From the IMG/VR virus record IMGVR_UViG_3300028591_000016: a stretch of 33,251 bases of DNA; one strand, written 5' to 3'. The DNA comes from an uncultured virus (IMG/VR IMGVR_UViG_3300028591_000016) (lineage: Duplodnaviria; Heunggongvirae; Uroviricota; Caudoviricetes). The notes beneath the pieces are model-generated. The model saw only the letters and a program-made list of their open reading frames with translations, was not told the DNA's origin and searched no databases. A program made the translations under genes and the position numbers. Of the stretch, positions 12,001 through 26,557 are shown piece by piece (position 1 is the first letter of the stretch; every line of letters begins with the position of its first letter).

Positions 12001-13475
12001 CTGGGACTATTGGTTGGGTTAGTCCTTATGGTTTGTCCCATTCATATAATATCGACTCCACCTCACATAATATAGAGTTTGTTAGAAACAATACAATCCC
12101 CGGGTATATTATATCCGCCAATTCAAACGGAGGGTCATACTCTAAAATTTCCAGTGCTACGCTTTATGAGCCAGCAGATGCGGATTGCGGAGTAGGATAT
12201 CTTGCTGCAGGATATGTCAAGGCAGTTCATAGAGGACGTAGGTCAACGTTTACGATGCCCGCCGCGACCACCAGGTGCAAACTCATCACTATTGCCAATG
12301 GGGATTACGTCAATAATAATTACACCGCACATATGAAGTTCAGAATCCGCACCGCAGTGAGCAACCCGTACGAGAACTTCACCGTGGAGATTCACTGGTC
12401 AGGCGCAGTCTCCAATATGCTGATCTACTCTGGTAATGCAACGGTCACGGGATCCGCACCGATCAGGTATGTATCCAGCTATGTAACGAAGACCCTGTCC
12501 TCCTCTGGTCATGGGTGTTTTGTAATGGTCGAGAACGGATCCACCACTGCAAGAAACATGATCATTGAGGTCCTTGAAGCGGATATTCCATATACTGTCG
12601 AGACAGGAACTCTTGCAGCACACGGCCAGACTGATGGCAATTTCAACATCGACCGTTTAGAGGCTGCTAACAATGCAGATAGGACCATCGTTTCCTCGGG
12701 TTCGATGGTCACCAGCATCACGGGTAATTGCAGCGGATCGGCAGGAAGTGCGAACTGGTCTTACTACCTCTATAACGATTATTGGGGCACCACCGGAGAA
12801 GCGATCACCAGCGGGCAGATCATCGCAAAAGGTTCAGACGGAAAGGCATATACCCTAAAGAGCAGAACGGACAAGGTGTTCGCATTGCCGTTGACTGTCG
12901 GGAGGGCGAACAGCGCATTCAATGCGAATGTGAACTGTGCAGTCCAGCATCAGGTCCGTAACTTAGCCTCAAGCGCCCTTACATCAATGGTCGTAGATGC
13001 TTCTTCTGCTATAGGTGCACCGCTATATATCCGTGGATCTCTTGATTCCAATGGCTATTTCATCTGTGACGGCCACTACTCATCTGTAATGACCAATGGA
13101 TACACCTGGGTGCAGATCGGGTCCTTTGCACGTACCGTAAATAACTGGAATCTCGACGCATCACACATTCAGCACGCAATCACACTTAACTCCAGCGGAA
13201 AGGTGACCCATGTTGATGGAAAGGCCGTGTTGGATACGACCTATACGGTCAATAATGGTACGCTTACGATCAAGGGAGGTTCAACGACCGCCACGACATT
13301 CACTGCGAATTCATCCACTTCTCCGACTTTGACAATCTCGGGAAGCAGAGGAACGACCGTGACTGCTGCATCGGGTACGATCACAGTTTCATCCCCACAG
13401 ATATATTCGTCCACATCTGCGCCCACATCCTCCGATGGGTCTAACGGCGACATCTGGATCCAGTACACGGCGTGA
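9057..13475 (+). CDS. Long tail fibre protein with a pyocin-knob-like domain
   Basis: 1472 aa, T/S/G-rich; HTH/HVH metal-binding motifs (SHTH, ARADHVH, GDHTH, GNHTH); DLNNYYTPGFY..MWYRT..WGGWVR knob; C-terminal APTSSDGSNGDIWIQY. Confidence 0.8.
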   Translation: MVDTVTNPVPIPSDVEVNGKVKATKFIGPLEGNADTATTATTASKLGSSNVGATLKIMYLNGGSPTNGTQLYNDKVKVAGTASTIVTTGTTALDLATASHTHGNITNDGKLGTASRVVITDGSKNITTDSNIDTTELSYLNGVSSNIQTQIDGKMKRGTYERIEGTTSAHKDLNNYYTPGFYNVKGLYTDNCPLTTDTDYYLMVMPWNKDKWTTQFLISGNGTPNSGKMWYRTTTNGTATTWGGWVRAASASELPSASSTTPSDLGTAAVGTSTAYARADHVHKKPTASDIGAAPTSHAVDASTYGWGSKSVAGHLKVGSNITVSDGTISLTKTDVTSALGYTPPTSNTDTLMTQSVSTANATYPILACPTADATANQGAKTGIFASSVELNPSTGNIVFTKASGGISYKGTKSTYNMIRFVDNTGDTFGNGIIIGGGGLVSIGGGESATTIAGSESGGLEELRLGSDGVIRVYTNVQSNSTTVSTFNTDGTFTPKTSGSVASNNGNAVTGGVVYTAIQNLKSEIGTPMHYKGAWTSNNSWPSNPATGDTYRATVNGSIDNVPTWKAGDTLVYGESAWDIIPSGDEPTGTVIPSGTITNGHIAVFDGTSGNVIKDGGATSQFQPAGTYLTLYNNASNLSTIAGWGTLTSTNGYTHLAGVAQAAGGSNGELRIATKSGQVSVQVDGYYYQNEGKYQVIDTTTTQSLTNKTYNGYTLAAACAKGVDTSIANASSSASLPTSAAVAAFVEGKGYTTLSIGTTSTTAAAGDHTHAISLESGGATTFVLSHGGTYTLTAGGSSVIFKMPNDDNTHYTANLITGASATAQSNAANTTTNSIFLNLVENSTVRNSHNIVGSGGTTVACDANGKITITSPSLGTGASNAAKGNHTHTASLTAAGSSGTTLAHNTWYTLTAGGSSVIFKTPADNNTDIYVKQIPLTTDNTYTYPLLASATASATTETTTTSVFCPNIQLRPLSTAITLSLSGTIGWVSPYGLSHSYNIDSTSHNIEFVRNNTIPGYIISANSNGGSYSKISSATLYEPADADCGVGYLAAGYVKAVHRGRRSTFTMPAATTRCKLITIANGDYVNNNYTAHMKFRIRTAVSNPYENFTVEIHWSGAVSNMLIYSGNATVTGSAPIRYVSSYVTKTLSSSGHGCFVMVENGSTTARNMIIEVLEADIPYTVETGTLAAHGQTDGNFNIDRLEAANNADRTIVSSGSMVTSITGNCSGSAGSANWSYYLYNDYWGTTGEAITSGQIIAKGSDGKAYTLKSRTDKVFALPLTVGRANSAFNANVNCAVQHQVRNLASSALTSMVVDASSAIGAPLYIRGSLDSNGYFICDGHYSSVMTNGYTWVQIGSFARTVNNWNLDASHIQHAITLNSSGKVTHVDGKAVLDTTYTVNNGTLTIKGGSTTATTFTANSSTSPTLTISGSRGTTVTAASGTITVSSPQIYSSTSAPTSSDGSNGDIWIQYTA

Positions 13476-13480
13476 TAGAC

Positions 13481-14254
13481 ATGGCTGTACAAGGTAGCGG
13501 CACACAGGCAGACCCTTATACAAAAATTACGGGCATGGGGTTCCAATGGCTGGATGTTCAACCCGCTACGACCTATGTGGCTATCGGAACGGATATAGAC
13601 ATACGTGATGACGCATATGAACTCAGCGATTCAGACCCTCGTCTGCCCGCATATGGGCTGGCCTATGACCGCTCTTTGGGTTATTGGTCGTTGCACGGTA
13701 CGGTGTCCGCAAATGCGGGAGACACACTACATATAGAGTTGGATAACGGGGAAGAAGTGTGGCAGTCATGCACTCTCGTCTTCGTATCATCTGGACCTAC
13801 TGTTGAAGGAAGCGGAACACAGGCAGACCCGTGGACGAGATGGGAGGGGACGGCATGGCAATTCTGGGATGCGGTGGTCGATGGAAGGACATATTACGCA
13901 TCCATTGGGGCGTATTTCGATGTGACAGATTACGACCCAAGGGAAAGTGGCGAGGAAGATTATTTTGTTATAAAAGTTCAACCGAATGGCACATTGGGTC
14001 TTTCAATTGTCAAATACGGACTATCTGGCACGGCTACATCATCTGGGAAGGTAACTGTCCGCCTCGTTTGGGGTTTAGAGGGGCATGAAGAATATAAGGA
14101 GATTTACATTCAACTCGGCTCTGGACCTACACTCAACGTAAAGGTCAATGGTGCATGGAAGGAAGGTAAACCGTTCGTCAAGGTGAACGGTGCATGGAAG
14201 GAAGCAACCAAGGTCTTTGTTAAAGTCAATGGTGCGTGGAAGGAGTCTCAATGA
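13481..14254 (+). CDS. Fibre-associated adhesin: two GSGTQADP-headed domains plus three C-terminal VKVNGAWKE repeats
   Basis: Repeats visible in the translation; ATG 13481 chosen (alternative GTG 13472). Confidence 0.65.
   Translation: MAVQGSGTQADPYTKITGMGFQWLDVQPATTYVAIGTDIDIRDDAYELSDSDPRLPAYGLAYDRSLGYWSLHGTVSANAGDTLHIELDNGEEVWQSCTLVFVSSGPTVEGSGTQADPWTRWEGTAWQFWDAVVDGRTYYASIGAYFDVTDYDPRESGEEDYFVIKVQPNGTLGLSIVKYGLSGTATSSGKVTVRLVWGLEGHEEYKEIYIQLGSGPTLNVKVNGAWKEGKPFVKVNGAWKEATKVFVKVNGAWKESQ
14141..14245 (+). repeat. Three coding repeats (KVNGAWKE) starting at 14141, 14180 and 14222
   Basis: aaggtcaatggtgcatggaaggaa / aaggtgaacggtgcatggaaggaa / aaagtcaatggtgcgtggaaggag. Confidence 0.9.
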
Positions 14255-15018
14255 GATGGTACCACCTGCTCGCCACATATCTCATCCTGGCTATACTGTC
14301 CTTCAGCATAGTCATCACCGTCGTGATACCCTACACCCCGCAGGATGCCGCGGGGATCGATCCTCCCGAGACGCATGACGGCATATGGTGGAGGTGCCCC
14401 AATCCAGAAGGCACAGTCTACTCGTCGGTGTACCTCGATCTCACGGTCAGCAAGGATGATTACGAATCCTCTTTATCACGCACCCTCCTGCGCAACGCCA
14501 CCGTCTTCGTGCCGTCGTACGCACAGCTGATCGACCCGAACGATCATTACGTGAGGATCATAGCCGAGCACATCCTCACTAACACTGAGGGCTGCTCCGA
14601 TTACCTCAGGGCCGTGGCGGGGCTGAGGTTCGTGCAGGCCGCCATCGACTATGTATCCGATCCTGACCTGTACGGGTGTGACGATTTCCCGGCCACGCCC
14701 ACGGAGACGCTGTACATGAGGGCGGGGGACTGCGAGGACTCAGCCATCCTCCTAGCATCCATATATCTGGCCATGGACATGGACGCCGTCCTGCTTGATT
14801 ATCCACATCACTACGCTACCGGCGTAAGATGGGAGGGGCAGGACGAATACCTGGCCTGTCAGACCACATCGCGCATCGCCACTCCGAACAACAATCTCAA
14901 GCACGACAACACCCTACCGGAGTTCGTCCATATCGACGATGTGCCCCAGGTGTGCTGTGCGGTTAATGACGGGATAGCATTCATGAGATACGGGATCAAA
15001 CGGACTATCGGGGTATGA
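14251..15018 (+). CDS. Membrane-anchored transglutaminase-like cysteine protease
   Basis: N-terminal hydrophobic helix; FVQxxIxY..D, PTETL..GDCEDSAILLAS catalytic Cys motif, then PHHYATGV; ATGA overlap start. Confidence 0.8.
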   Translation: MRWYHLLATYLILAILSFSIVITVVIPYTPQDAAGIDPPETHDGIWWRCPNPEGTVYSSVYLDLTVSKDDYESSLSRTLLRNATVFVPSYAQLIDPNDHYVRIIAEHILTNTEGCSDYLRAVAGLRFVQAAIDYVSDPDLYGCDDFPATPTETLYMRAGDCEDSAILLASIYLAMDMDAVLLDYPHHYATGVRWEGQDEYLACQTTSRIATPNNNLKHDNTLPEFVHIDDVPQVCCAVNDGIAFMRYGIKRTIGV

Positions 15019-15145: not shown

Positions 15146-15235
15146 ATCACCTGGGACGCATACAGCAAACCAATAAGAAATGGCAGCTTTAGGAGCTTCG
15201 GTTCGATTCCGATTGACCGCGTCCTGGGAGGTGAT
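15146..15235 (+). ncRNA. ACAGCAAAC hairpin RNA 2 carrying a T-arm and D-loop-like module (YrlA/Y-RNA-like)
   Basis: GGGACGC(15153-59)/GCGTCCT(15219-25) stem; ACAGCAAAC 15162-70; AAATGGC; AGCT/AGCT hairpin; TCGG-TTCGATT-CCGA at 15198-15212. Confidence 0.65.
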
Positions 15236-15239
15236 TGCT

Positions 15240-16844
15240 ATGATAGGAAACGACAACGCATTTGTTAACCAGGCAGCTGACGCTGCAGCTAGGACCCACA
15301 CGGAGAATGGCGCGAACGCTTACAGAACGACCCAGTCCGCACTTGTGGACCTCTTCGCCTCCATCGGGGCACTCAGAGAGTCCAACAGGATGCAGTTCGA
15401 CAGATTCACGGACATGCTCGACCTGTCCGCCGCGGAGGATGCCACTATCCTCGCGAAGATGCTCTTCTATGCAAGGGACATCAGGGGAGGACTCGGAGAG
15501 AGGCAGGTCTTCCGCGACGCTCTCGAGCACTGCGCGAAGAACCACCCTGAGGTCATCAGACCCAACATTCGCAGGATCCCCGAATACGGCAGATGGGACG
15601 ACCTGCTCGCTCTCATCGGCACGCCCCTCGAGGACGAGATGTGGGCCTTCATCGACGAGACCATCAAGAACGATATGTGCCAGATCAGGGACGGCAAGCC
15701 CGTGTCCCTTCTCGGCAAGTGGCTCCCCTCCGCGGACACCTCCTCCAGGGAGACCCGCAAGATGGGATGTTACGCAGCCAAGAAGCTCGGGTACACCGTG
15801 CACGACTACAAGCGCGTGGTCAAGCACCTCAGGAAGCACCTCCCCATCACGGAGACCCAGATCTCCTCGAACAAGTGGGACGAGGTCAAGTACCCCGGAG
15901 TGCCCTCCAACGCCATGATGAAGTACAATAAGGCGTTCGCAAGGCACGACGCCGAGAGGTTCGCACAGTACGTCAACGACGTCAAGGCCGGCAAGACCAA
16001 GATCAACGCGTCCACCCTCTACCCCTACGAGATAGTGGAGAAGGTGCGCTGCAACAACGATGCCGTCATCTATAAGGAGATGTGGAAGCACCTGCCCAAC
16101 TACGTGGACGGAGAGAACGACTACCTCATCATCGCCGACACCTCCGGCTCCATGATGGGGCGCCCCATGGACACCGCCATAGGTCTGGCACTGTACTTCG
16201 CAGAGAGGAACCAGGGAGCCTTCAAGGACATGTTCCTGACCTTCAGCTCCACGCCCGAGTTCGTGCAGGTCCCCAGGGCCCTGCCCCTCGACAGAAGGAT
16301 CTACACGGTCATGAACGCACCCTGGGGGGGCTCCACCAACCTGCAGGCCGCGTTCCAGCTGATCCTCGACACCGCCAAGAAGGGCAACGTGCCCGCGAAG
16401 GACATGCCCAAGTCGCTGATCATCATCACCGACATGGAGTTCGACGCTTGCGTGGAGGCCACCCCCGTCGAGCCCGACAAGCCCGTCACGGTCACCAAGA
16501 TCCTCGTCGACCCCATGTCCGGACTGCGCTACAGCGTAGAGGTGCCCGCACCTTACATCCCTCCCCGCAGGATGAGGGCGGACTGCACGTTCTTCGAGTC
16601 CATGCAGAAGATGTACGCCGAGGCCGGCTACGAGATGCCTAACGTGGTCTTCTGGAACGTCAACAGCAGGAACTCCACGGTGCACACCAAGGCCGACACG
16701 CCCAACGTGCAGCTGGTCTCCGGGTCGTCTCCTTCGGTCTTCCGCAGCCTTACGGAGTGCCTGACCATGACCCCCTACGAGGCCATGCTCAAGATCCTGT
16801 CCGTGGACAGATACAAGAACATCGTCGCGGAGACAATAGGATGA
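15240..16844 (+). CDS. DUF2828 family protein (TROVE/Ro60-like helical domain + vWA MIDAS domain)
   Basis: Motifs RDIRGGLGER, YGRWDDL, KWLPS, VPSNAM, INASTLYPYEIV, DTSGSM, WGGSTN, ITDMEFD, VFWNV, VSGSSP; GGAGGTGA SD at 15227-34 supports ATG 15240. Confidence 0.85.
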   Translation: MIGNDNAFVNQAADAAARTHTENGANAYRTTQSALVDLFASIGALRESNRMQFDRFTDMLDLSAAEDATILAKMLFYARDIRGGLGERQVFRDALEHCAKNHPEVIRPNIRRIPEYGRWDDLLALIGTPLEDEMWAFIDETIKNDMCQIRDGKPVSLLGKWLPSADTSSRETRKMGCYAAKKLGYTVHDYKRVVKHLRKHLPITETQISSNKWDEVKYPGVPSNAMMKYNKAFARHDAERFAQYVNDVKAGKTKINASTLYPYEIVEKVRCNNDAVIYKEMWKHLPNYVDGENDYLIIADTSGSMMGRPMDTAIGLALYFAERNQGAFKDMFLTFSSTPEFVQVPRALPLDRRIYTVMNAPWGGSTNLQAAFQLILDTAKKGNVPAKDMPKSLIIITDMEFDACVEATPVEPDKPVTVTKILVDPMSGLRYSVEVPAPYIPPRRMRADCTFFESMQKMYAEAGYEMPNVVFWNVNSRNSTVHTKADTPNVQLVSGSSPSVFRSLTECLTMTPYEAMLKILSVDRYKNIVAETIG

Positions 16845-16881: not shown

Positions 16882-17136
16882 ATGGATACAGAACTCAAAG
16901 CAAAGCTCAAAGCGAAACTGAATGTGACCGTACAGGCCGTGCAGGGAATGATGCAGCCCGACATCGACGATGAGGAGAAGCAGGGCTGGATCGCCATCTA
17001 CAACGGTGCTATGCGCAAGATCATGAACGACTACCTCGCCGACGAAGTCCCTCCTCAGGCTCCCTCGGAGGAGCCTTCCGCAGAGGCCGGAGAAACCGTC
17101 GTGGAAGACGTCGGTGGAATCACAAATGCCGAGTGA
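16882..17136 (+). CDS. Hypothetical protein, acidic C-terminus
   Basis: 84 aa; GAGGT SD; codon style matches neighbours. Confidence 0.7.
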   Translation: MDTELKAKLKAKLNVTVQAVQGMMQPDIDDEEKQGWIAIYNGAMRKIMNDYLADEVPPQAPSEEPSAEAGETVVEDVGGITNAE

Positions 17137-17440
17137 GCTCATGGATTTCGGCGAAGCACTCAAGGCCCTCAAAGAGGGTAAGAAGATCGCCCGCGAGGGC
17201 TGGAATGGGCAAGGAATGTTCCTCTACCTCACGCCCGGACATAAGCTGTCATCTCAGGAGTGGACCGCAAAGGACTCCGCTCATGAGATGACCGACCACG
17301 AGCGTCTAACAGGTGAGGTCGAGATCCTCCCCCACATCGACATGTACACGGTCAACCGTGACGGTCGCAGGGGCAGGCTCTGCGGATGGCTCGCCAGTCA
17401 GACGGACATGCTGTCCGAAGACTGGATCATTGTAGAGTAA
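17126..17440 (+). CDS. tad2: DUF2829 / Thoeris anti-defence 2 (Tad2)-like nucleotide-signal sponge
   Basis: MDFGEALKALKEGKKIAREGWNGQGMFLYL ... PHIDM ... GWLASQTDMLSEDWIIV is the DUF2829 signature; start 17126 or 17141. Confidence 0.8.
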   Translation: MPSELMDFGEALKALKEGKKIAREGWNGQGMFLYLTPGHKLSSQEWTAKDSAHEMTDHERLTGEVEILPHIDMYTVNRDGRRGRLCGWLASQTDMLSEDWIIVE

Positions 17441-17453: not shown

Positions 17454-17490
17454 ATAGATACTGTCTATACAAAATATAGACAATATCTAT
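17454..17490. promoter_or_regulatory. 16-bp-arm inverted repeat (1 mismatch, 5-bp spacer) abutting a TTTATA box upstream of the NAD operon
   Basis: ATAGATACTGTCTATA-caaaa-TATAGACAATATCTAT; TTTATA at 17490-95. Confidence 0.55.
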
Positions 17491-17543
17491 TTATACTTCT
17501 TTTGCATATCATATCTCGGGTGAAAGCCCGAGGAGAACAAAAC

Positions 17544-18080
17544 ATGAAGAACGTATTGATCGTGATCGACATGCAGAACGACTTCATCACCGGTTCCTTA
17601 GGATCGGAGGATGCTCAAGCGATCGTTCCTGCTATCGTGAAGAGGATCAGGAGCGGGTACTATGACGATATCTTCGCCACCAGGGACACGCACAAGGACA
17701 ACTACATGGATACCCTTGAGGGACAGAAACTGCCGGTGCCGCACTGCATCAAGGATACCGAAGGCTGGCAGATCCAGAAGGACATCAAAAAAGCTCTGGA
17801 TGATATGAACGGAGACTCATACGTTCAGATCATCGACAAGTACACCTTCGGCTCGCTGTTACTGCCGACCAAGATCAGGGACGGCGTCGAGGAGATTGAC
17901 ATCGTCGGGGTCTGCACGGACATCTGTGTCATCAGCAACGCCCTCAGCCTGAGGATGTTCTACCCGAATATGCCCATCCGCGTCATAGCGAATGAGTGTG
18001 CGGGAGTGACCCCCGAGCTGCACGAGGCCGCTCTGAAGGTCATGCAGTCATGCCAGATCGATATCGAGACCACGGAGTGA
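17544..18080 (+). CDS. pncA: Nicotinamidase (isochorismatase/cysteine hydrolase family)
   Basis: IDMQNDF, TRDTH, PHC..GW, KYTFGS, VGVCTDICV motifs; GAGGAG SD before ATG 17544; NAD-gene context. Confidence 0.85.
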   Translation: MKNVLIVIDMQNDFITGSLGSEDAQAIVPAIVKRIRSGYYDDIFATRDTHKDNYMDTLEGQKLPVPHCIKDTEGWQIQKDIKKALDDMNGDSYVQIIDKYTFGSLLLPTKIRDGVEEIDIVGVCTDICVISNALSLRMFYPNMPIRVIANECAGVTPELHEAALKVMQSCQIDIETTE

Positions 18081-18084
18081 GCGG

Positions 18085-18942
18085 ATGCTGACCTTCAAGG
18101 ACATACCCACGGATAAACCGATCACGTATGAGATCAGCATAGGAGAGTTCAACGACCAGACCCCCAAGATCAAGGTGGCCATAGATAAGCTTCTTGAAGG
18201 GAAGCACCTGGTCATCGAGGTCGTGTGGACCTTTGAGGCCAGCAGGTGGGAGCGCGATCTGTTCAACCTCCAGTGCATCATGGACATGCTGCGCAGAGAA
18301 CAGGGGATCAAGGTCTGGCTCTATATCAGATACCTGCCTAACGCAAGGATGGACAGGACTGATGATGAGACGGCGTTCACTCTGTGGTCCTTTGCGAGGA
18401 TAATCAACAAGATGTACTTCGTAGGGGTAAAGATCGACGACCCCCACTCTGATACAGCACTGAATCTGATAGACAGGAGCTATCCCGGGTCCATATCGGA
18501 CCGCTATGCTGCGGTATGTAAGAAGGTCAAGAACCCGCTGATCGTCTTCCCGGACGAAGGAGCCCTATACAGGTATGCCAAGGACATCCCCGAGGATGTG
18601 CCGGTCACACACTGCAAGAAGACCAGGGACTGGAACACGCAGCACGTGACGGACATGAAGCTGATGAACCCCGAGATGGTCAAGGGCAAGGACGTGGTCC
18701 TCATAGACGATATCATCGCCCACGGCTACACCATGTATCTGGCCATCAAGGAGATCGAGGAATACAGCCCCAAGTCTATCACGATCTACGCCACGCACAT
18801 AGAGGAGTCCTTCATAGACGGGATACTGTGCCAGAAGCTGAACGAAGGAGAGATCGAGGCCCAGGTGTACACCACGGGCTCGATCATAAGGAAGTGGGAC
18901 AAGGTCCCGGAATACTTCCACATACTGGAGGGAACTGAATGA
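18085..18942 (+). CDS. Ribose-phosphate pyrophosphokinase-like protein (PRS fold; candidate ADPR-PP synthetase, Adps-like)
   Basis: YLPNARMDR, DPHS, VFPDEGA..RY, KTRDW, VLIDDIIAHGYT motifs; coupled to the NAMPT-fold gene. Confidence 0.8.
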   Translation: MLTFKDIPTDKPITYEISIGEFNDQTPKIKVAIDKLLEGKHLVIEVVWTFEASRWERDLFNLQCIMDMLRREQGIKVWLYIRYLPNARMDRTDDETAFTLWSFARIINKMYFVGVKIDDPHSDTALNLIDRSYPGSISDRYAAVCKKVKNPLIVFPDEGALYRYAKDIPEDVPVTHCKKTRDWNTQHVTDMKLMNPEMVKGKDVVLIDDIIAHGYTMYLAIKEIEEYSPKSITIYATHIEESFIDGILCQKLNEGEIEAQVYTTGSIIRKWDKVPEYFHILEGTE

Positions 18943-20444
18943 AATACAACCCAATGCTAGCATGCGACTACTACAAGACCGTACACACGCAGATGCTCCC
19001 CAAGGGCATCACCAAGTCCGTGAGCTACCTCTTCCCGAGGAGCTCCCGCATCCCCGGATGGGACGAGGCGGTGTTCTTCGGCCTCAGAGGCTTCATCCAG
19101 GAGTATCTCATCGACATGTTCAATGAGAACTTCTTCAAGCAGCCCAAGAGACAGGTGATGGGAGAGATAGAGTATGTGCTCAGGCACACTCTCGGAGAGA
19201 AGGCGAAGTCCAACATCAAGCAGATCGGCGAGCTCTACGATCTGGGCTATCTGCCCATCGCGATCTACGCCCTGCCCGAGGGATCGCATGTCCCTATGGG
19301 AGTGCCGATGCTGGCCATCACCAACACCCTGCCGGAGTTCGCATGGCTCCCGCAGTATCTGGAGTCGCTGCTGTCCTGCGAGATGTGGCACGGCATCGTC
19401 GTGGCCACCGTCGCGGACAAGTACAGGCAGATCGTCGACAGATGGTACGAGAAGACCGTGGTCGGCGGCAAGCCCGAGACCGCACTCTCCTGCTTCGATA
19501 TGAGGGGAGAGGAGTCCTTCGGGGACGCTGTCAAGGCGGGAGCCGCATGGGCCACGTCCTTCGTGCCCTGTGCCACCGTCTCCACGGCCACCTACCTCTA
19601 CGACTGCTACGGCGCAGACGAAGCCTGTATCACCGGCTCGCCGTCGACGGAGCACGCGGTCATGTGCTCCAACTATGCGGTGGACGGGGACGAGGTCACC
19701 TTCCTCAAGAGGATGCTCACGGAGGTCTATCCCGAGCAGAGCTTCTCGGCGGTGCTGGACTCCTACGACTACTGGCGCATGATCAAAGAGGTGCTGCCCA
19801 CGCTCAAGGAGGAGATCCTTGCACACAAGGGCTGCTTCCTGCCGAGAGGGGACTCAGGCGATCCTGTCGAGGTCGTTACGCAGACGGTGTTCGCACTCTG
19901 GGACATCTTCGGCGGCACGGTCAACGACAAGGGCTACAAAGTCCTCGACCCGCACGTCAAGGCAATCTACGGGGACGGCATCACCCTCCAGAGATGCGAG
20001 GAGATCTACTCCATCCTGGAGAAGAACGGCTTCGCGGCAAGCAACGTGGCGCTGGGAGTAGGCTCGTACAGCATGCAGGCGGTCTGCATCGACGATAAGC
20101 ACTATCCCTTCACCAGGGACACCTTCAACATCGCCATCAAGGCCACCTACATCGAGGTCAACGGCAAGGCGTACATGATCCAGAAGTCGCCCAAGGTCAA
20201 CGGGGCGCACGGAGAGACCACCGAGTACTTCAAGAAGTCCAAGAAGGGAGCGATACTCGTGACCGGAGAGGACGGGGAGTACATCGCGGAGGACGGATTC
20301 CTCTTCGATGAGACCCGCAAGAGCAAGCTCAACAGGCTGAGGCTGGTCTTCTACGAGGGACAGATGGGCCGCGACGACTCGCTTGACGAGATCAGGGACA
20401 GGCTCAACAGGTACAGGGAGAAGCAATATGAGGTTCAACGCTGA
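18939..20444 (+). CDS. NAMPT-family (NadV/Namat-like) phosphoribosyltransferase, probably nicotinate-preferring
   Basis: DYYK..H, FFGL, LGYLPI, FDMRG, TEHAVM, DSYD, RGDSGDP, IYGDGIT, GVGS, TRDT..AIKAT motifs. Confidence 0.9.
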   Translation: MKYNPMLACDYYKTVHTQMLPKGITKSVSYLFPRSSRIPGWDEAVFFGLRGFIQEYLIDMFNENFFKQPKRQVMGEIEYVLRHTLGEKAKSNIKQIGELYDLGYLPIAIYALPEGSHVPMGVPMLAITNTLPEFAWLPQYLESLLSCEMWHGIVVATVADKYRQIVDRWYEKTVVGGKPETALSCFDMRGEESFGDAVKAGAAWATSFVPCATVSTATYLYDCYGADEACITGSPSTEHAVMCSNYAVDGDEVTFLKRMLTEVYPEQSFSAVLDSYDYWRMIKEVLPTLKEEILAHKGCFLPRGDSGDPVEVVTQTVFALWDIFGGTVNDKGYKVLDPHVKAIYGDGITLQRCEEIYSILEKNGFAASNVALGVGSYSMQAVCIDDKHYPFTRDTFNIAIKATYIEVNGKAYMIQKSPKVNGAHGETTEYFKKSKKGAILVTGEDGEYIAEDGFLFDETRKSKLNRLRLVFYEGQMGRDDSLDEIRDRLNRYREKQYEVQR

Positions 20445-21159
20445 ACAGGCGAGGGACGACATAATCCTCTTCATCCGGGACTTCTTCAAGTCCTCCGGAG
20501 GAAAAACCGCGGTGATCGGACTCAGCGGTGGCAAGGATTCCACCATAGTCGCGGCACTCTGTGCCGAGGCCATCGGCAAGGAGAACACCGTAGGCGTGAT
20601 CATCCCTAACGGAGAGATGGCCGACATCGGCGAGGCGAAGGAGGCTGCCGAGCTGTACTGCGGCGACAGCTATGTGTTCAACCTGTCATCGATGATGATG
20701 TGCATGAACACGTCCGTGCTGCCGAAGTCCACGGAGCAAGCGAGGATCAACTTCCCCGCAAGGATGAGGATGTGCATCCTCTACTACGTGGCGCAGAGCC
20801 TCAGGCACGGCCGTGTGGCCAACACCTGCAACCTGTCCGAGGACTACGTCGGATGGGCGACCAGGTACGGCGACACCGCAGGGGACTTCGCTCCCCTGCA
20901 CAATTACACCGTGCAGGAGGTCAAGGCCATAGGCCGCGCTCTGGGCGTTCCATCCGAGCTGGTGGAGAAGGCACCGTCCGACGGACTCTGCGGCAAGACC
21001 GACGAGGAGGGGCTGGGCTTCAGCTATGAGGTGCTGGACAGATACATCCGCACGGGGGAGTGCGACGATACCTTGATCAAGGAGAGGATCGATACGCTCC
21101 ACGAGAGGAACCTGTTCAAGCTCATGCCGATCCCGGCCGCTCCCAACAGGTACGCATAA
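20428..21159 (+). CDS. nadE: NH3-dependent NAD+ synthetase
   Basis: GLSGGKDS P-loop, ARMRM, NTCNLSEDYVGWATRYGD, KAPSDGL, TDEEGLG; no glutaminase domain; GGGAG SD before ATG 20428. Confidence 0.9.
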   Translation: MRFNAEQARDDIILFIRDFFKSSGGKTAVIGLSGGKDSTIVAALCAEAIGKENTVGVIIPNGEMADIGEAKEAAELYCGDSYVFNLSSMMMCMNTSVLPKSTEQARINFPARMRMCILYYVAQSLRHGRVANTCNLSEDYVGWATRYGDTAGDFAPLHNYTVQEVKAIGRALGVPSELVEKAPSDGLCGKTDEEGLGFSYEVLDRYIRTGECDDTLIKERIDTLHERNLFKLMPIPAAPNRYA

Positions 21160-21171: not shown

Positions 21172-21243
21172 AGTCCCGTGGTGTAATGGAGATCATTCAA
21201 GTCTTTGGAACTTGAGATAAGGGTTCGATCCCCTTCGGGACGA
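21172..21243 (+). tRNA. tRNA-Gln (TTG)
   Basis: AGTCCCG/CGGGACG acceptor (A1-G72 mismatch); CAAGT-CTTTGGA-ACTTG anticodon arm; AAGGG-TTCGATC-CCCTT T arm. Confidence 0.9.
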
Positions 21244-21245
21244 CC

Positions 21246-21322
21246 GGGTCATTGGGCTAGTTTGGCCATGCTCGCTGGTTTGGGACCAGCAGACGGAGGT
21301 TCAAATCCTCCATGACCCACCA
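21246..21322 (+). tRNA. tRNA-Pro (TGG) with encoded CCA
   Basis: GGGTCAT/ATGACCC acceptor; GCTGG-TTTGGGA-CCAGC anticodon arm; GGAGG-TTCAAAT-CCTCC T arm; ACCA end. Confidence 0.93.
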
Positions 21323-21385: not shown

Positions 21386-21685
21386 ATGGAAAAATCACTT
21401 GAAGACCAGATCGATGAATATTATGGCAAACAGGCGTCCGAACCCCCAAGATGGACACTTAAGCAGATAGTGGAATCAAGGAGGGCCATGGTCGAGGCCG
21501 TTGAAAGATTTGGGTACCTCCCCATAGCCAATCTGTGGCTGGGACCCCTTGTCACCAAATGGGCATTCGAGTCTCAAACACCCGAGAGCCTGACTCCTGA
21601 GGAGGAGGACGCACTGCTCAAGGAGTTACATGAGCTAAACCTATGGCTTAAGGACTGGATCAATACGCATGATGGCGTGTTGTAA
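21386..21685 (+). CDS. Hypothetical protein
   Basis: 99 aa, AGGAG SD. Confidence 0.7.
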   Translation: MEKSLEDQIDEYYGKQASEPPRWTLKQIVESRRAMVEAVERFGYLPIANLWLGPLVTKWAFESQTPESLTPEEEDALLKELHELNLWLKDWINTHDGVL

Positions 21686-21697
21686 GGAGGAAAAGAT

Positions 21698-21862
21698 ATG
21701 GCAGATAAGGACAACAAGATAAGCATAAGGATGACAGACGAGGACCTGGAGATCATTGAGAGGCTGTCCCACAAATTCGGAGACATCTCTGCCTCCGCCG
21801 TGATCCGCATGGCCCTCAGAGCGTACGACAGACAGGCATTCAGGGGGAGGAAGACGGAATGA
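21698..21862 (+). CDS. Ribbon-helix-helix (CopG/Arc-like) DNA-binding protein
   Basis: 54 aa, below the ORF-track cutoff: MADKDNKISIRMTDEDLEIIERLSHKFGDISASAVIRMALRAYDRQAFRGRKTE; AAGGAGG SD; beta strand ISIR, helix, G-x-S-x-S, VIRxAL. Confidence 0.75.
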   Translation: MADKDNKISIRMTDEDLEIIERLSHKFGDISASAVIRMALRAYDRQAFRGRKTE

Positions 21863-21933
21863 CCGACTTCTTCCTTGCGATGCTCATCATAGCGATATTC
21901 ACATTGACATTGGCCATGATATGGAATATGTGA
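21859..21933 (+). CDS. 24-aa single-helix hydrophobic peptide
   Basis: MTDFFLAMLIIAIFTLTLAMIWNM; ATGA-coupled to the RHH gene and fills the gap to the next ORF. Confidence 0.45.
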   Translation: MTDFFLAMLIIAIFTLTLAMIWNM

Positions 21934-22115
21934 TGATAATGATATTCAAAACAAGGTTTGGCACATTGGAACTGCCCAAGGATGACTGCATCACCTGCAT
22001 CTACGTGGGCAAATACATGTCATGCAGCATGTGCGAGTTCAGATGGGGCCTCATAGAGGACGCCACCGAGCCGTTCTACGCAAGACAGAGGGCAATAGAG
22101 GAGGCGAGCGAATGA
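21933..22115 (+). CDS. Small CxxC...CxxC protein
   Basis: CITC, CSMC; start uncertain (21921/21933/21939). Confidence 0.55.
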   Translation: MIMIFKTRFGTLELPKDDCITCIYVGKYMSCSMCEFRWGLIEDATEPFYARQRAIEEASE

Positions 22116-22312
22116 CCCCTCTCGGGATTCGGGTGCCGCCCATGTGGATGGAGTGCACCGGCGAGGGCTACACATGCATCTGTCCCCAGTGCGGGACGAT
22201 ATGCAGGACTGTCAACCCCACGGGCGACAGCGCGGAGATGTACTGCACCAACTGTTACACTGGATTCAGGATCACATTCCTGAGAGAAGTGGTGGAGAAG
22301 GTGAGCGAATGA
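22112..22312 (+). CDS. Small zinc-ribbon protein
   Basis: CPQC, CTNC; ATGA overlap. Confidence 0.65.
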   Translation: MTPLGIRVPPMWMECTGEGYTCICPQCGTICRTVNPTGDSAEMYCTNCYTGFRITFLREVVEKVSE

Positions 22313-22563
22313 CCTACGATTGGGATGCATGCGAGAAGCTCTCCCTCGATGAGCTTGATGCGCTGGCAAGGATGGTCAATACGATCCTGTGGCACGTGGA
22401 CCACTTGAAAGCAAAGCTGGGTGAGTTGGGGTTTGACACAAGATCCCCCGAGAGCGACTCCTTCATGGTGCCGAGGCTCGTCCAGTACAGCGCAGACCTG
22501 CGCTATGTCAATGACGAGCTCTGCGAGCTCATCAGGAAGAAAGGCGGGGAGGTGGACGAATGA
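22309..22563 (+). CDS. Hypothetical helical protein
   Basis: MTYDWDACEK...; ATGA overlaps at both ends. Confidence 0.65.
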   Translation: MTYDWDACEKLSLDELDALARMVNTILWHVDHLKAKLGELGFDTRSPESDSFMVPRLVQYSADLRYVNDELCELIRKKGGEVDE

Positions 22564-22964
22564 GATGCGAGATCTGTGGAAAGGAGGCTCCGTACTTCAC
22601 GGAGACATACGACCCTATGGAGAAGAAGGCCAGGACGATCTACCTCTGTGAGGAGCATCAGGAGAAGATGTATAGAAGGATCGTCGACACCATGCTCAAT
22701 ATGGGGTCGGAGTATATCATCGAATACAATACAAGGATCCTTAAACTCCCCGAAAGCCTCGATGTCGATAAGGAGGCCATCCGCAAGATGCTAGAGGCGA
22801 ATGACAAGGCAATCCCCATCATCCAGGAACCTCCGATGAATGATAAGATCAGGGACATCGGCAAGGTGCTGGCATGGCTGTATTCCCAGGGCATCCTTAT
22901 AAACGGCAGGGACGACGAGATCGAGGAGCTGCTGAGGAACATCACAAAGGAGGGAGAGGAATGA
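22560..22964 (+). CDS. Hypothetical protein with N-terminal CxxC...CxxH zinc finger
   Basis: CEICG...LCEEH; GGAGGTG SD. Confidence 0.7.
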   Translation: MRCEICGKEAPYFTETYDPMEKKARTIYLCEEHQEKMYRRIVDTMLNMGSEYIIEYNTRILKLPESLDVDKEAIRKMLEANDKAIPIIQEPPMNDKIRDIGKVLAWLYSQGILINGRDDEIEELLRNITKEGEE

Positions 22965-23458
22965 GTCTATTCAAGAAGGATAAGAAGGGAGCAAATGAAT
23001 GCATCCCTTCCGAAGCGGAGAGGCGTGCGAAGTGGCATGCATCCGTCTGTGAAGAGCTGCGCGCCACCGAAGGGCCGCATTCATGTAAGGATTGCATGCA
23101 CACGACTCCCGTATATATCGGAGGCAACCCTGACCTGGACAGGTGCACACCCATCAGACGCTGCTCCCTGCCAGATGCCGCCGACAAGACACTCTTCGTC
23201 CAAGGAAATGAGAACGGGAAGTGGGTCTACCGCAGATGGACCGATTGCAAAGGGTTCTCTCCCGTCCACGAGTGCGAGAATTGTACGCACTACGATAAAG
23301 AGGCACTTCTCATACATATCGCAGATGATGCTGCAATCGCCAAATTGCCTGATTATTGCTGTGCGCATTATGAGTGCAAAGAGATGTTTACCGATCTCGC
23401 CTGCAAGGCCGCACTGAAGTGCAAGAACTACGAATACAAAGAGGGGGCGAGTGAATGA
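22961..23458 (+). CDS. Cysteine-rich hypothetical protein
   Basis: Two CxxCxH repeats; ATGA overlap. Confidence 0.65.
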   Translation: MSLFKKDKKGANECIPSEAERRAKWHASVCEELRATEGPHSCKDCMHTTPVYIGGNPDLDRCTPIRRCSLPDAADKTLFVQGNENGKWVYRRWTDCKGFSPVHECENCTHYDKEALLIHIADDAAIAKLPDYCCAHYECKEMFTDLACKAALKCKNYEYKEGASE

Positions 23459-23799
23459 CTGACGAAACTTCTGATATGGAGTGCATCTCATGTGTCTCTT
23501 ATGTACGCAACGCTACAAAGGAAGAACTGATGTCCACCTTCAGGTACGCCGATCCCGACGAACTCGTGTGGGATGATGAGGAACAGGCATGGAAGGTCAC
23601 ATTCAACGAACTGTCCAATGAGAATGCATGGTATTCCGAGAGCGATGATGCTGTCAGAAGGAGACTCCCGAAGGCGAAATTCAAACAGGTGTATTACGGC
23701 GAAGACGGGTCGATACTGGAAAGCATTGACTACATGGATAATGAAGAGTTTGAGAAATATCTGGACGAAGAAATGAAAAAAATGGGGTTGAAAGAATGA
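23455..23799 (+). CDS. Acidic hypothetical protein
   Basis: 114 aa, D/E-rich; ATGA overlap. Confidence 0.65.
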   Translation: MTDETSDMECISCVSYVRNATKEELMSTFRYADPDELVWDDEEQAWKVTFNELSNENAWYSESDDAVRRRLPKAKFKQVYYGEDGSILESIDYMDNEEFEKYLDEEMKKMGLKE

Positions 23800-24035
23800 T
23801 CTCCGAGACACTTGAGCCATTCCTCGATGCAGGTATGGCAGGGTTGTTGTGGGGCTTCGTCATATGCCTGTGGCTGTTCGCACACGAGCTGATCAAGGAT
23901 TACACGAGATTTGGCAGTAAGTACAACCCCCCTGAACTGGAGGAGTATGCGATCGTCGGACTGGCGATAGTGATGCTCAGCGCACTAACGTTCATCGTGT
24001 TGCTGTGGACACTGACCATCATGGGGGTGATGTAA
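23796..24035 (+). CDS. Small two-transmembrane-helix protein
   Basis: Two hydrophobic segments; ATGA overlap. Confidence 0.65.
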   Translation: MISETLEPFLDAGMAGLLWGFVICLWLFAHELIKDYTRFGSKYNPPELEEYAIVGLAIVMLSALTFIVLLWTLTIMGVM

Positions 24036-24037
24036 GA

Positions 24038-24502
24038 ATGATAGAGTACATCTGCGATAACTGCGGGAAGCGTATAGACGATCTGCCCAAGGAGGTCAGG
24101 GAGCACTCCTTCGAGAAGCATATCTGCAGGGATTGCATCAAGGGGATGATCAGAGAACAGGCCAAGAAGATCGCTGCCGCACACCTGGAGTGTGCACCGT
24201 ACGGTCAGCTCCTGTGCATCTACCAGAACCTCAACGGAGCATACCTCAACGCGATGGACATAAGGACCCCATGGGAGCTTCCGAAGTGTCACGTATGCGG
24301 GAGCGAGATGAAGATACCCAATCCGGCGGTACGTGAGTACTTCTGCGAGACATGCATGGTCATCTATGACAGATTCGGCAACAAGATCAGGGATGTGGTG
24401 GCAGAAGAGCCCGCCCGCCCAAGTGCAGGAATGTACGATACAGCAAGAGAGATAGCCAAAGAAGAGGAAGAAAAATTAAGAAAAGAAGGGAAGTGGTTCT
24501 AA
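24038..24502 (+). CDS. Double zinc-finger hypothetical protein
   Basis: CDNC, CRDC, CHVC, CETC; GGGGTGA SD. Confidence 0.65.
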   Translation: MIEYICDNCGKRIDDLPKEVREHSFEKHICRDCIKGMIREQAKKIAAAHLECAPYGQLLCIYQNLNGAYLNAMDIRTPWELPKCHVCGSEMKIPNPAVREYFCETCMVIYDRFGNKIRDVVAEEPARPSAGMYDTAREIAKEEEEKLRKEGKWF

Positions 24503-24684
24503 TGACTGACCTAAAATCATGTCCGTTCTGCGGAGGGGATCCAAAACTGGAGTCCGACTCGCACAGGAGAGAGTTCGGCAGGGACAGATTCCGCATAGTA
24601 TGCTCGTCATGCTATGCCGGCACCAGATGGTACGACAGCCCCGATGAAGCGTGGCTGATGTGGAATGGGAGAGTGAAAGAATGA
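24502..24684 (+). CDS. Lar-family (restriction-alleviation-like) zinc-finger protein
   Basis: LKSCPFCGG...VCSSC...EA..MWNGR. Confidence 0.7.
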   Translation: MTDLKSCPFCGGDPKLESDSHRREFGRDRFRIVCSSCYAGTRWYDSPDEAWLMWNGRVKE

Positions 24685-24893
24685 CAACAGATAAGAAAGA
24701 AGAAGCATGGGGCTCCGGCTACGTGCCGCACGCCTTCATGGAGAGATTCAAGTGCCCCAGGTGCGGCAGCGTGCACTTCAAGAGCTACCCGCAGGCCGTA
24801 CCTGCCGACAGATCGCAGACGTGGACGTACGAGTATGTCTGCGCCAAGTGCGGTCAGGGCATGGGCCTGACGATGGTAGGGGATGACGAATGA
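24681..24893 (+). CDS. Small zinc-ribbon protein
   Basis: CPRCG, CAKCG; ATGA overlap. Confidence 0.65.
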   Translation: MTTDKKEEAWGSGYVPHAFMERFKCPRCGSVHFKSYPQAVPADRSQTWTYEYVCAKCGQGMGLTMVGDDE

Positions 24894-25285
24894 TCTTCAA
24901 GAAACATAGAAAAACCGAGCAGGCTGAACCGGAGAAACCGCCGTTCCCGCTGGATAAGCCCAACTCCTGCGAATATTGCATGCATAACCTCTGTACAGGT
25001 ACGACGTACATATGTGATGCATATTACTGTATGAACAAGCGCATTGAGACCTGGTGGTGGTCCAAGGAGGGCAGCGCGTTCAGGACATGGGACAGATGCG
25101 ACGACTATAAACCCCATAAGATCTGCGCAACCTGCAAATATGGTCCCGCCAGGGGTATGCTCACAGAGACCCGCATCATCGGCGATGAAGAGATCGAGGT
25201 CAAGGTGCACCCTTCGACAAGATGCCCCTATGGACCCGAGTGCAAGAATGCCGAGAAATGGGAGCCGAAGGAGATGAAGGAATGA
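24890..25285 (+). CDS. Cysteine-rich hypothetical protein
   Basis: CEYCMH, CATCKY; resembles 22961..23458 in layout. Confidence 0.65.
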   Translation: MIFKKHRKTEQAEPEKPPFPLDKPNSCEYCMHNLCTGTTYICDAYYCMNKRIETWWWSKEGSAFRTWDRCDDYKPHKICATCKYGPARGMLTETRIIGDEEIEVKVHPSTRCPYGPECKNAEKWEPKEMKE

Positions 25286-25572
25286 CCGTCAAGTATGAGT
25301 GCGACAGATGCCACAGGCAGACGACGGACCGTGATAAGATGATGGAGGTGACCTGGAGGAGGAAGAACGACTTCCTCGGTGTCGACTTCGTCGAGTCCGG
25401 CACGTACCACTACTGCTCGTTCTGCTCGCTGATGATGTGCAACGCCTTCGGCATCGTCAACGACGGGACGTATGCCGGGTCGCTGCGCGGCGAGGACAGG
25501 ATAGGCAACTACAACGAGGATCTGAAGGAGGCCGACCCCTTCTTCAACAAGGACCTGGAGATGAAGGAATGA
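25282..25572 (+). CDS. Zinc-finger hypothetical protein
   Basis: CDRC, CSFC; ATGA overlap. Confidence 0.65.
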   Translation: MTVKYECDRCHRQTTDRDKMMEVTWRRKNDFLGVDFVESGTYHYCSFCSLMMCNAFGIVNDGTYAGSLRGEDRIGNYNEDLKEADPFFNKDLEMKE

Positions 25573-25871
25573 CCGACAAAGAAGAGACTGGTGGGTGTAT
25601 CAAGTGCGGTTCGCCTAAAGGGAGACCGAAGACGATCTGGGGCGATGAATACTATGTGTGTAAATACTGCGAGGACGAAGCGAAAGGGATCGCCAGGGGA
25701 GTGGTACGCATGTATCTGTGCGGTGACGACTGCTTCATCGGGTTCAGAGCGAAGGACATCCCCGAACTCAAGGGACTGTTCGCACAGTCTGAGAACGAGG
25801 ACATCAGAGAGCTGGTAGAGTTCCTCGAGGGCGTGGAAGCGGACATCGGATCGAGGGAGGCGAAGGAATGA
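25569..25871 (+). CDS. Zinc-finger hypothetical protein
   Basis: CIKC, CKYC; ATGA overlap. Confidence 0.65.
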   Translation: MTDKEETGGCIKCGSPKGRPKTIWGDEYYVCKYCEDEAKGIARGVVRMYLCGDDCFIGFRAKDIPELKGLFAQSENEDIRELVEFLEGVEADIGSREAKE

Positions 25872-26104
25872 CTTGGGACTCTAGTCTGACATCGCCCTTG
25901 CCATCAAGAGAGGAAGTCGAGCATAGAATATCTGCACTAGAAGAGAGTCTGAAGCCCTGCCCGTTCTGCGGTAATACCAATCTGTCAATCGAATTTGATG
26001 ATTGGGGGGATATGTACATCTATTGTGCGGTCTGCGATTCGATATATGAGAATTGCCGTATTAGTAAGCTAATTGAAGGTTGGAATAGGAGGGCGAGTGA
26101 ATGA
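25868..26104 (+). CDS. Second Lar-family zinc-finger protein
   Basis: LKPCPFCG...CAVC...WNRR. Confidence 0.7.
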   Translation: MTWDSSLTSPLPSREEVEHRISALEESLKPCPFCGNTNLSIEFDDWGDMYIYCAVCDSIYENCRISKLIEGWNRRASE

Positions 26105-26358: not shown

Positions 26359-26389
26359 ATCAGAGAAGGCTCGCCGCAATGAAGGAGGA

Positions 26390-26557
26390 ATGAAGATGCT
26401 GTCTGAAAGGGACAAGAAAGATGTGGAGGAATGGAAGCACACGATCTATGAGATCCGCGATGAGACAGGGTGGACCACGAATGAGATCAACCTATTCCTG
26501 TTATACGTGGAGCTCAAACGCCTTAATAGCACCTTAGAGGTGATGAAATGGAGGTGA
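26390..26557 (+). CDS. Hypothetical protein
   Basis: AAGGAGG SD before ATG 26390/26396. Confidence 0.55.
   Translation: MKMLSERDKKDVEEWKHTIYEIRDETGWTTNEINLFLLYVELKRLNSTLEVMKWR

Follow-up and report, generated by a model that had tools for sequence, protein, structure and literature searches.

A four-gene cassette in an uncultured tailed virus may rebuild NAD+ from nicotinate and ADP-ribose

By which chemistry could a virus restore NAD+ with its own nicotinamidase and NAD+ synthetase, and with no adenylyltransferase to join them? This question is raised by a 33,251-nucleotide stretch of an uncultured tailed virus (Caudoviricetes; IMG/VR record IMGVR_UViG_3300028591_000016), here called the window, in which four plus-strand open reading frames (ORFs) occupy positions 17544-21159. 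Their packing is operon-like: in order, the genes are joined by a 4-base gap, a 4-base ATGA overlap and a 17-base overlap. They encode a PncA-like nicotinamidase, an Adps-like paralogue of the phosphoribosyl pyrophosphate (PRPP) synthetase Prs, a Namat-like transferase and the NAD+ synthetase NadE. A sequence-only reading had described four tightly linked genes and had interpreted them as a deamidated NAD+ reconstitution pathway; the ORFs are present as described, and all four have family matches (Table 1).

The two central genes recall NARP1, a self-sufficient two-gene module of Adps and Namat known from the phages SPbetaL1, Bas63, FADO and ICP1 and from Paenibacillus foliorum (bioRxiv 10.1101/2024.02.11.579819; PMC12774641; PMC13586617), in which nicotinamide and ADP-ribose pyrophosphate (ADPR-PP) yield NAD+. 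In both, a Prs paralogue of the Adps family is encoded next to a transferase of the Namat family; the latter retains its catalytic His, its ligands for ribose and phosphate and the majority of the adenine-clamp residues, and the pair stands beside an anti-defence gene in a virus. The window cassette differs by a switched base pocket (Asp215 to Ala, Ala242 to Ser), by a 9-residue insert in the clamp helix and by its linkage to PncA and NadE, both of which canonical NARP1 lacks in the loci sampled (0/71); its predicted product is nicotinic acid adenine dinucleotide (NaAD) instead of NAD+.

The best reading of the cassette, which we hold with moderate confidence, is a deamidated NAD+ rebuilding route, that is, a nicotinate-type variant of NARP1. 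Such a route would be triggered when a host NADase cleaves NAD+ into ADP-ribose and nicotinamide. PncA would deamidate the nicotinamide to nicotinate, and the Adps-like enzyme would pyrophosphorylate ADP-ribose with ATP to ADPR-PP. The Namat-like enzyme, with its adenine clamp largely kept and its amide pocket rebuilt, may then join nicotinate and ADPR-PP directly to NaAD, bypassing nicotinic acid mononucleotide (NaMN) and the need for an adenylyltransferase. NadE would finally amidate NaAD to NAD+ using ATP and ammonia. Three in silico observations support this interpretation: (i) the pocket change tracks the presence of PncA and NadE in the loci sampled; (ii) the Prs-like protein is a member of the Adps family by profile score; (iii) no nicotinamide mononucleotide (NMN) adenylyltransferase (NMNAT) was found in the window ORFs scanned or in five related viral records.

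In sequence, the transferase resembles Namat much more closely than it does Nampt. It matches the solved structures 9W5X and 9W5W, both identified as SPbetaL1 Namat (PMC12774641), with 355.5 bits (4.1e-105), as compared with 161.8 bits (2.2e-46) for Xanthomonas Nampt 7YQO and about 136 bits (about 1e-38) for human NAMPT. The nicotinamide pocket of Namat is formed by Phe189, Arg192, Asp215, Ala242, Arg306, Asp13' and Tyr15', with Asp215 making the hydrogen bond (PMC12774641). Two of these positions are altered in the window transferase, Asp215 to Ala212 and Ala242 to Ser236, and the remaining pocket residues are kept. The equivalent of Asp215 in human NAMPT, Asp219, has been called fundamental for substrate specificity (PMC7096376), and its replacement by Ser is listed as switching substrate affinity (PMC4919578); this NAMPT/NadV residue is absent from the window enzyme, where Ala212 takes its place.

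The two replacements divide the family cleanly. After dereplication at 90% identity, the Asp215 site is occupied by Ala (83) or Ser (1) in the 84 enzymes linked to PncA or NadE, as opposed to Asp (54) or Glu (1) in the 55 others; the Ala242 site holds Ser in 84/84 of the former and Ala in 55/55 of the latter. The sites that distinguish the two classes, and that the main clade has in common with the relatives of phage Phass-1, include those of Asp215 and Ala242 and another, two residues before Phe189, where His is changed to Gly.

For the genomic context, an alignment of the window clade retrieved 80 loci each from species genomes and viral contigs, and a single protein retrieved two; a control scan based on canonical Namat added 79 new loci, that of ICP1 among them, and relatives of Phass-1 another 10. 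Partner genes were annotated with purpose-built hidden Markov models (HMMs). Among 244 loci, the residue at the Asp215 site is Ala in 172 and Ser in one; of these 173 loci, 156 also hold PncA, Adps and NadE; the other 17 are partial, and 49 loci of the Ala/Ser type have short flanks, a tally that includes the Phass-1 group. The remaining 71 loci are of the Asp (68) or Glu (3) type: Adps is found in 68 of them, PncA in none and NadE in none. When only the 187 loci with 5 kb of flank on both sides are considered, again including the Phass-1 group, all three partners are present in 130/134 Ala/Ser loci, the other four having PncA and Adps only (three) or PncA and NadE only (one), and 53/53 Asp/Glu loci have Adps alone, with neither PncA nor NadE. 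Since 130 of the 134 loci of the same type with such flanks hold all three partners, the linkage of the cassette is not due to chance. The bacterial loci are uniform in gene order, and the viral ones fall into three arrangements (52, 29 and 5 loci).

In the Phass-1 group, the Ala and Ser replacements recur in 11/11 loci together with the four genes, and the clamp motif of Namat is unchanged (GAYTYQYVTRD); this lineage thus appears to combine a predicted nicotinate pocket with an intact clamp for ADPR-PP. Much of the binding site for the ADP-ribose moiety is preserved in the window transferase as well. The Namat ligands of ribose, phosphate and adenine (Asp13, Tyr15, Arg40, Phe189, Arg192, His245, Arg306, Asp308, Gly390, Ser391, Phe392, Thr398, Arg399 and Asp400) are conserved, and the adenine-clamp residues that are kept correspond to Arg37, Tyr377 (Tyr or Phe in the clade), Thr392, Arg393 and Asp394 of the window enzyme. 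Arg37 is the equivalent of Namat Arg40, the clamp-loop Arg that stacks on the adenine; 79 of the 84 dereplicated enzymes of the Ala type have Arg and four have Lys at this site.

Profile scores assign the Prs-like protein to the Adps family and not to Prs, in line with its earlier description as Adps-like. The profile phrog_619 does not separate Adps from Prs (it has matches in 14/14 control genomes), and therefore an Adps-only HMM was built from 67 Adps adjoining Asp-type Namat and a Prs HMM from housekeeping Prs. The window protein scores 176 bits on the former versus 30 bits on the latter. Across 164 Prs-like proteins of such cassettes, the medians are 249 bits versus 40 bits, with individual scores of 20-68 bits on the Prs HMM, and the housekeeping Prs of cassette-bearing bacteria reach 69-109 bits on the Adps HMM. 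Against TIGR01251, the window protein scores 71.1 bits, below the cut-off of 113; the match of its 285 residues stops at position 281 of the 309-position profile, which fits the loss of the C-terminal module alpha11-alpha12 in Adps and is a weak test, as short archaeal Prs exist. The residues of ICP1 Adps that are assigned to substrate binding or catalysis, Arg87, His121, Asp161, Lys185, Asp212 and Asp213 (PMC13586617), are invariant in an alignment of nine sequences, for which ICP1 Adps was taken from the ICP1 genome record. The best match among solved structures is Sulfolobus Prs (4TWB), in a PDB set without Adps structures.

In other cassettes, an Adps-like gene was recovered in 5/5 viral records searched with phrog_619, four of which were also used in the NMNAT search. 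The apparent absence of Adps from L140-L143, L148, L156, L151 and L153 in tblastn searches proved to be an artefact of sensitivity, the loci not retrieved with phrog_619 being resolved by Pfam or HMM searches. The 296-aa ORF that follows NadE in L141 is not Adps.

The PncA-like protein is a member of the isochorismatase family, and the solved structures closest to it include the PncA enzymes of Pyrococcus (1ilw/1im5), Mycobacterium tuberculosis (3pl1) and Streptococcus pneumoniae (3o90). Its Asp9, Lys99 and Cys128, together with Asp48, His50 and His67, align with the DxQxDF, K, C and D-x-H...HC motifs of these proteins; we take the first three to be the catalytic triad and the other three to be the metal site. 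The protein falls under the cut-off of the equivalog model NF008623 (31.7 bits vs 174). NadE scores 156.2 bits on TIGR00552 (cut-off 63.65), has an SGGKDS motif at residue 33 and, with 243 residues, is a form without glutaminase domain.

As had been noted, no adenylyltransferase for NMN or NaMN accompanies these genes: a Pfam scan of 32 ORFs of the window, which is part of a virus genome, gave no match to the NMNAT family. PF01467 was likewise found in 0/5 related cassette-bearing viral records, four of them at least 90% complete, and the control was positive in 14/14 genomes.

The earlier suggestion that similar clusters occur in some Firmicutes is borne out by 80 loci in genomes with this label, of which 44 have full flanks and 43 of these hold the complete cassette; relatives are most numerous in genomes labelled Lachnospiraceae and other Clostridia. 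In three bacterial loci examined, the flanks are chromosomal, with genes for DNA polymerase III alpha, phosphofructokinase and ornithine carbamoyltransferase, and a regulator of the NrtR type follows NadE. An NrtR HMM finds this regulator in 60/69 bacterial loci with enough flank versus 0/86 viral loci. In vitro, ADP-ribose detaches NrtR from DNA (PMC2330246). Five cassette-bearing bacterial genomes encode Prs above the cut-off (5/5), NadD (5/5), a classical nicotinate phosphoribosyltransferase (NAPRT; 4/5) and a second, long NadE (3/5); as these hosts already own Prs, NadD and mostly NAPRT, the cassette is an extra pathway and does not make up for absent salvage genes.

Several points weigh against the deamidated route. 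What the sequences show is the gene content, the membership in families, the residues of the active sites and the co-occurrence of the genes; all four substrates and products, above all those of the transferase step, and the counter-defence role we infer from sequence comparison; for the latter, the grounds are kinship with NARP1 and the adjacent Tad2-like gene. The correlation of pocket and partner genes is less replicated than its counts suggest: in a tree of 80 representatives, from which the trait-defining columns had been removed, the 32 Ala/Ser sequences form one branch (SH-aLRT, the Shimodaira-Hasegawa-like approximate likelihood ratio test, 99) and the minimum number of state changes is one. 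Phass-1 forms a very long branch of unsure position in this tree. The Ala/Ser trait and its association with PncA and NadE therefore arose once or at most twice, and the correlation reflects one origin, perhaps two, not many independent replicates. For human NAMPT, the mutation D219A is recorded as inactivating the enzyme instead of switching it (PMC4919578). Production of NMN from PRPP is retained by Namat in vitro (PMC12774641), so that a PRPP-dependent side or even main reaction is conceivable for the window transferase. The pyrophosphate (PP) loop of the window Adps-like protein, DDIIAHGYTM, lies outside the pattern DD[IL]C[SD]xGGTF of the 67 canonical Adps; for comparison, most cassette Adps read DDICS[RKY]GGT[FM], Prs DDMI[SD]SG[GE]S[MV] and ICP1 Adps DDICDGAASF. 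The clamp helix, too, does not conform to the signature described for Namat, GSX-phi-X-phi-X-phi-TRD, in which positions 3 and 7 are aromatic (PMC12774641): the window sequence runs GSYSMQAV, nine extra residues, FTRD, and keeps the aromatic at position 3, has Ala at position 7 and lacks the third aromatic unless Phe391 or Tyr389 substitutes for it. The use of ADPR-PP is therefore less secure in the window lineage than in Phass-1. An AlphaFold2 model based on a 14-sequence alignment is too poor in the pocket to help, with a mean predicted local distance difference test score (pLDDT) of 67.8 and values under 50 for residues 183-248 and 374-397. Finally, control by NrtR extends to ordinary pncA-pncB-nadD-nadE operons and to prs-nadV pairs (PMC2330246), and the presence of NrtR beside the bacterial copies is for this reason mild support for ADP-ribose as substrate.

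In the viral contigs L097, L134, L135, L137 and L150, the insert in the clamp helix is placed between GSFSMQC and P[FY]TRD and ranges from 9 to about 40 residues; it seems to act as a free loop on the surface or as a module of individual lineages.

These points raise the question whether the cassette might instead boost conventional Preiss-Handler salvage, in which PncA would provide nicotinate, the Prs-like protein PRPP and the NAMPT-fold enzyme NaMN, host NadD would convert NaMN to NaAD and viral NadE would complete the pathway. A pocket in which Asp is replaced by Ala and Ala by Ser would suit nicotinate equally well here, and the transferase just passes NF006629, an NCBIfam model named nicotinate phosphoribosyltransferase (409.2 bits, cut-off 405). 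The clamp helix with its insertion and without its third aromatic, the altered PP loop of the window and the PRPP activity that Namat retains in vitro all suit this alternative, and NadD would be at hand in every host, as it is in 5/5 cassette-bearing bacterial genomes. However, a PRPP-making enzyme is not what the second gene resembles: it is an Adps by score, unlike the housekeeping Prs of cassette bacteria, and SPbetaL1 Adps yielded no PRPP-type product (bioRxiv 10.1101/2024.02.11.579819). The cassette bacteria already have Prs in all five and a classical NAPRT in four of the five genomes, the clamp residues from Arg37 to Asp394 are conserved, and Phass-1 unites the full Namat clamp with the same pocket switch. 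On balance, a Preiss-Handler booster, the main rival, appears unlikely. Because of the switched pocket, it is very unlikely that the central pair performs canonical NARP1 chemistry, making NAD+ from nicotinamide and ADPR-PP, with PncA and NadE as independent salvage helpers that feed the host pathway. Such an arrangement would accord with the strong kinship to Adps and Namat and with the accessory genes that NARP1 operons are known to acquire, for instance a phosphatase against aRES (PMC13728456) and RyDEP (bioRxiv 10.64898/2026.05.28.727677). Yet the amide-binding Asp is Ala or Ser in every PncA- or NadE-linked enzyme of the dereplicated set and Asp or Glu in all others, the corresponding D219A change abolishes human NAMPT activity, PncA would compete with Namat for nicotinamide, and not one of the 71 Asp-type (Asp/Glu) loci has acquired PncA or NadE. 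That NadE might act as an NMN synthetase, or PncA on a substrate other than nicotinamide, was dropped by reasoning, since an adenylyltransferase would still be needed or NadE would be left without substrate.

A further alternative concerns the role only and is compatible with any of these chemistries: the virus may have borrowed from cells a housekeeping or auxiliary system that recycles ADP-ribose and nicotinamide and raises NAD+ during infection regardless of NADase immunity. The chromosomal location of the same operon in many gut genomes labelled Clostridia and the adjoining NrtR speak for it, as does the remark of the NARP1 authors on bacterial copies of unknown role (bioRxiv 10.1101/2024.02.11.579819; PMC12774641). 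We nevertheless consider it rather unlikely for the viral copies, none of which adjoins NrtR: a Tad2-like anti-Thoeris gene directly precedes the window cassette, NADAR and Macro genes near the cassette of other viruses favour counter-defence, and NARP1, where characterised, is active only if ADP-ribose is delivered by an NADase (bioRxiv 10.1101/2024.02.11.579819).

How does the deamidated route relate to what is known? With Preiss-Handler salvage (PncA, PncB, NadD, NadE), it shares the initial deamidation of nicotinamide and the final amidation of NaAD by NadE; it differs in that the cassette has neither a PncB-family NAPRT nor NadD, which Adps and an ADPR-PP-using transferase would replace. 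NARP2 (NAMPT and NMNAT, vibriophage KVP40) and NARP3 (PnuC and NadR; PMC13464706) likewise restore NAD+ in viral infection, but both need an adenylyltransferase, and none was found in the window ORFs or in the five related viral records. The NrtR-regulated prs-nadV operons of Shewanella, Acinetobacter and others (PMC2330246) share a second Prs paralogue, a NadV-like gene and an ADP-ribose-responsive repressor; they lack pncA and nadE, and the four-gene form is not seen in the accessible part of the regulon table. Our literature search, which covered openly readable papers and the main texts of preprints, found no report of NARP1 together with a nicotinamidase or NadE, and found ADPR-PP together with nicotinic acid only in passing. 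The main texts of the NARP1 preprint and of the Namat paper do not mention nicotinamidase, nicotinic acid or NadE, and the RyDEP and aRES preprints do not mention an isochorismatase-family protein or an NAD synthetase. A survey of gut jumbo phages lists pncA and nadE genes, not the four-gene module, and the Phass-1 paper lists only a nicotinamidase. Formation of NaAD from nicotinate and ADPR-PP is a predicted route that was not found in the literature searched.

A wider claim, which we put forward tentatively and with more doubt than conviction, would be that the cassette represents a fourth, adenylyltransferase-free route of NAD+ reconstitution (nicotinate + ADPR-PP to NaAD) with a wide distribution in gut Clostridia and the phages of these bacteria, and that it occurs here in a tailed archaeal virus beside a homologue of a Thoeris sponge. 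If true, it would add nicotinate ADP-ribose transferase to the known enzyme activities, and with it a new way of making NAD+ from ADP-ribose without a NaMN or NMN step. It would explain why an entire clade of Namat-like proteins carries the annotation nicotinate phosphoribosyltransferase, would mean that many gut Clostridia recycle ADP-ribose under NrtR control, and would add a second class to sequence rules that predict which phages overcome NADase defences (Thoeris, DSR, SIR2-HerA, pAgo). The two-residue pocket switch offers a simple hypothesis that can be tested by mutation. What the longer route might gain, for example by trapping the base as an anion or by letting the ATP consumed by NadE pull the reaction, is a matter of speculation, and so is the idea that the intermediate NaAD escapes NADases. 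The window itself contributes a very divergent, possibly archaeal, tailed virus with an unusual Adps loop and Namat clamp; should its host be archaeal, immunity by NAD+ depletion and its reversal by viruses would be a live conflict in archaea, too.

Table 1. Features of the cassette and its immediate surroundings (positions in the window; reactions of the cassette enzymes are predictions)
Feature	Position	Strand	Evidence	Predicted reaction or remark
DUF2828/DUF7788/vWA protein	15180-16844	+	Pfam 5.2e-43 and 1.2e-38; phrog_850 7.7e-136	
Tad2-like gene (Thoeris anti-defence 2-like domain)	17114-17440	+	PF11195 2.7e-25, 89.1 bits (cut-off 25); phrog_1048 3.9e-28	immediately upstream of the cassette
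Intergenic control region (putative)	17456-17532	n/a	read from sequence	between Tad2-like gene and pncA
Nicotinamidase (PncA-like cysteine hydrolase)	17544-18080	+	PF00857 5.6e-22	nicotinamide to nicotinate
Adps-like Prs paralogue	18085-18942	+	PF00156 1.7e-09	ADP-ribose + ATP to ADPR-PP + AMP
Namat-like transferase, remodelled base pocket	18939-20444	+	PF04095 and PF18127	nicotinate + ADPR-PP to NaAD + pyrophosphate
NH3-dependent NAD+ synthetase NadE	20428-21159	+	PF02540 1.1e-48	NaAD to NAD+
tRNA-Gln(TTG)	21172-21245	+	ARAGORN	12 bases past NadE
tRNA-Pro(TGG)	21246-21322	+	ARAGORN	

Between the Tad2-like gene and pncA, an inverted repeat (17456-17469 and 17475-17488; 13/14 bases complementary around a 5-base spacer) is followed by a TTTATA box at 17490 and a GC hairpin at 17515-17532, and GAGGAG precedes the ATG of pncA; the repeat may be an operator or a terminator. 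Homologues of the DUF2828/vWA protein are also found near the cassette in L017, L087, L141, L151 and L160. Just before its gene in the window, an ORF at 14236-15018 has weak matches of transglutaminase- or peptidase-like type, below cut-off (20.2 and 15.8 bits). Around the cassette of the viral contigs L141, L151 and L153, genes for NADAR, Macro domain, SPFH/Band_7, DUF2828/vWA, TelA and adenylosuccinate-synthetase-like proteins recur, which points to a more extensive island that may serve to handle ADP-ribose or to counter defences. On a contig of a metagenome-assembled genome (MAG) labelled Methanobrevibacter (L034:9493-10788), the cassette NadE is fused to an N-terminal NADAR domain.

The archaeal-virus setting assumed in the sequence-only reading stands in part: the tRNA-Gln is archaeal-like and a related tailed virus has a PCNA-like gene, and an archaeal host is plausible. 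The tRNA-Gln aligns over its full length, at 73-79% identity, in 48/151 genomes of the phylum to which the MAG labelled Methanobrevibacter belongs; in 150 Clostridia genomes no full-length match was found, and the pieces that matched, mostly from part of the tRNA-Pro, did not exceed 58 bases. Among cellular transferases, the one nearest in the tree (SH-aLRT 94) lies on a contig of this MAG, flanked by genes for Thi4 and 2-oxoacid:ferredoxin oxidoreductase. A distantly related virus of 99.6 kb, G006, shares 13/39 window ORFs including the structural block; it is tailed, as it carries a large terminase, and its PCNA-like gene scores 27.8 bits (cut-off 20.3). The AT-rich motif described below also counts in favour of an archaeal host. 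Against an archaeal host, the G+C content of the window is 52% versus 36% for the contig of the Methanobrevibacter-labelled MAG; moreover, MAG labels can be wrong, and the archaeal sampling consisted of that one phylum. All in all, an archaeal host seems likely, if with some reserve.

Most of the remaining window is highly divergent. The 25 further ORFs in 1-14254 and 21386-33251, among them ORFs of 986, 693, 631 and 1472 aa, have no Pfam match, and 24 of them have no PHROG match; the ORF at 13472-14254 has two weak ones (5.7e-07 and 1.1e-05, the latter to a minor tail protein family). For the 693-aa structural protein, nine relatives were found among 5.8 billion clusters, and a nucleotide search of phage records gave short matches only, at 66-75% identity. 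The viral record nearest to the window, G001, is a fragment of 5.8 kb that lacks the cassette. Positions 6-13475 are collinear with the tail or structural region of G006, at 25-64% identity. G006 (L285-L289) has direct terminal repeats and nine clustered tRNAs including tRNA-Ile(TAT), and also carries genes for RtcB, ThyX, dUTPase, a D5-type primase-helicase, a C5 DNA methylase and a BspA-type leucine-rich repeat protein. An AT-rich motif, TATATCATGTC, occurs in the window five times when one mismatch is allowed, versus 0.9 copies expected, a number reached in 0/100 shuffles. Its copies start at 15051, 16845 and 21329 on the plus strand and at 29621 and 29680 on the minus strand, all of them in or beside gaps between long ORFs, and the motif could serve as a promoter of the virus, its core being TATA-like.

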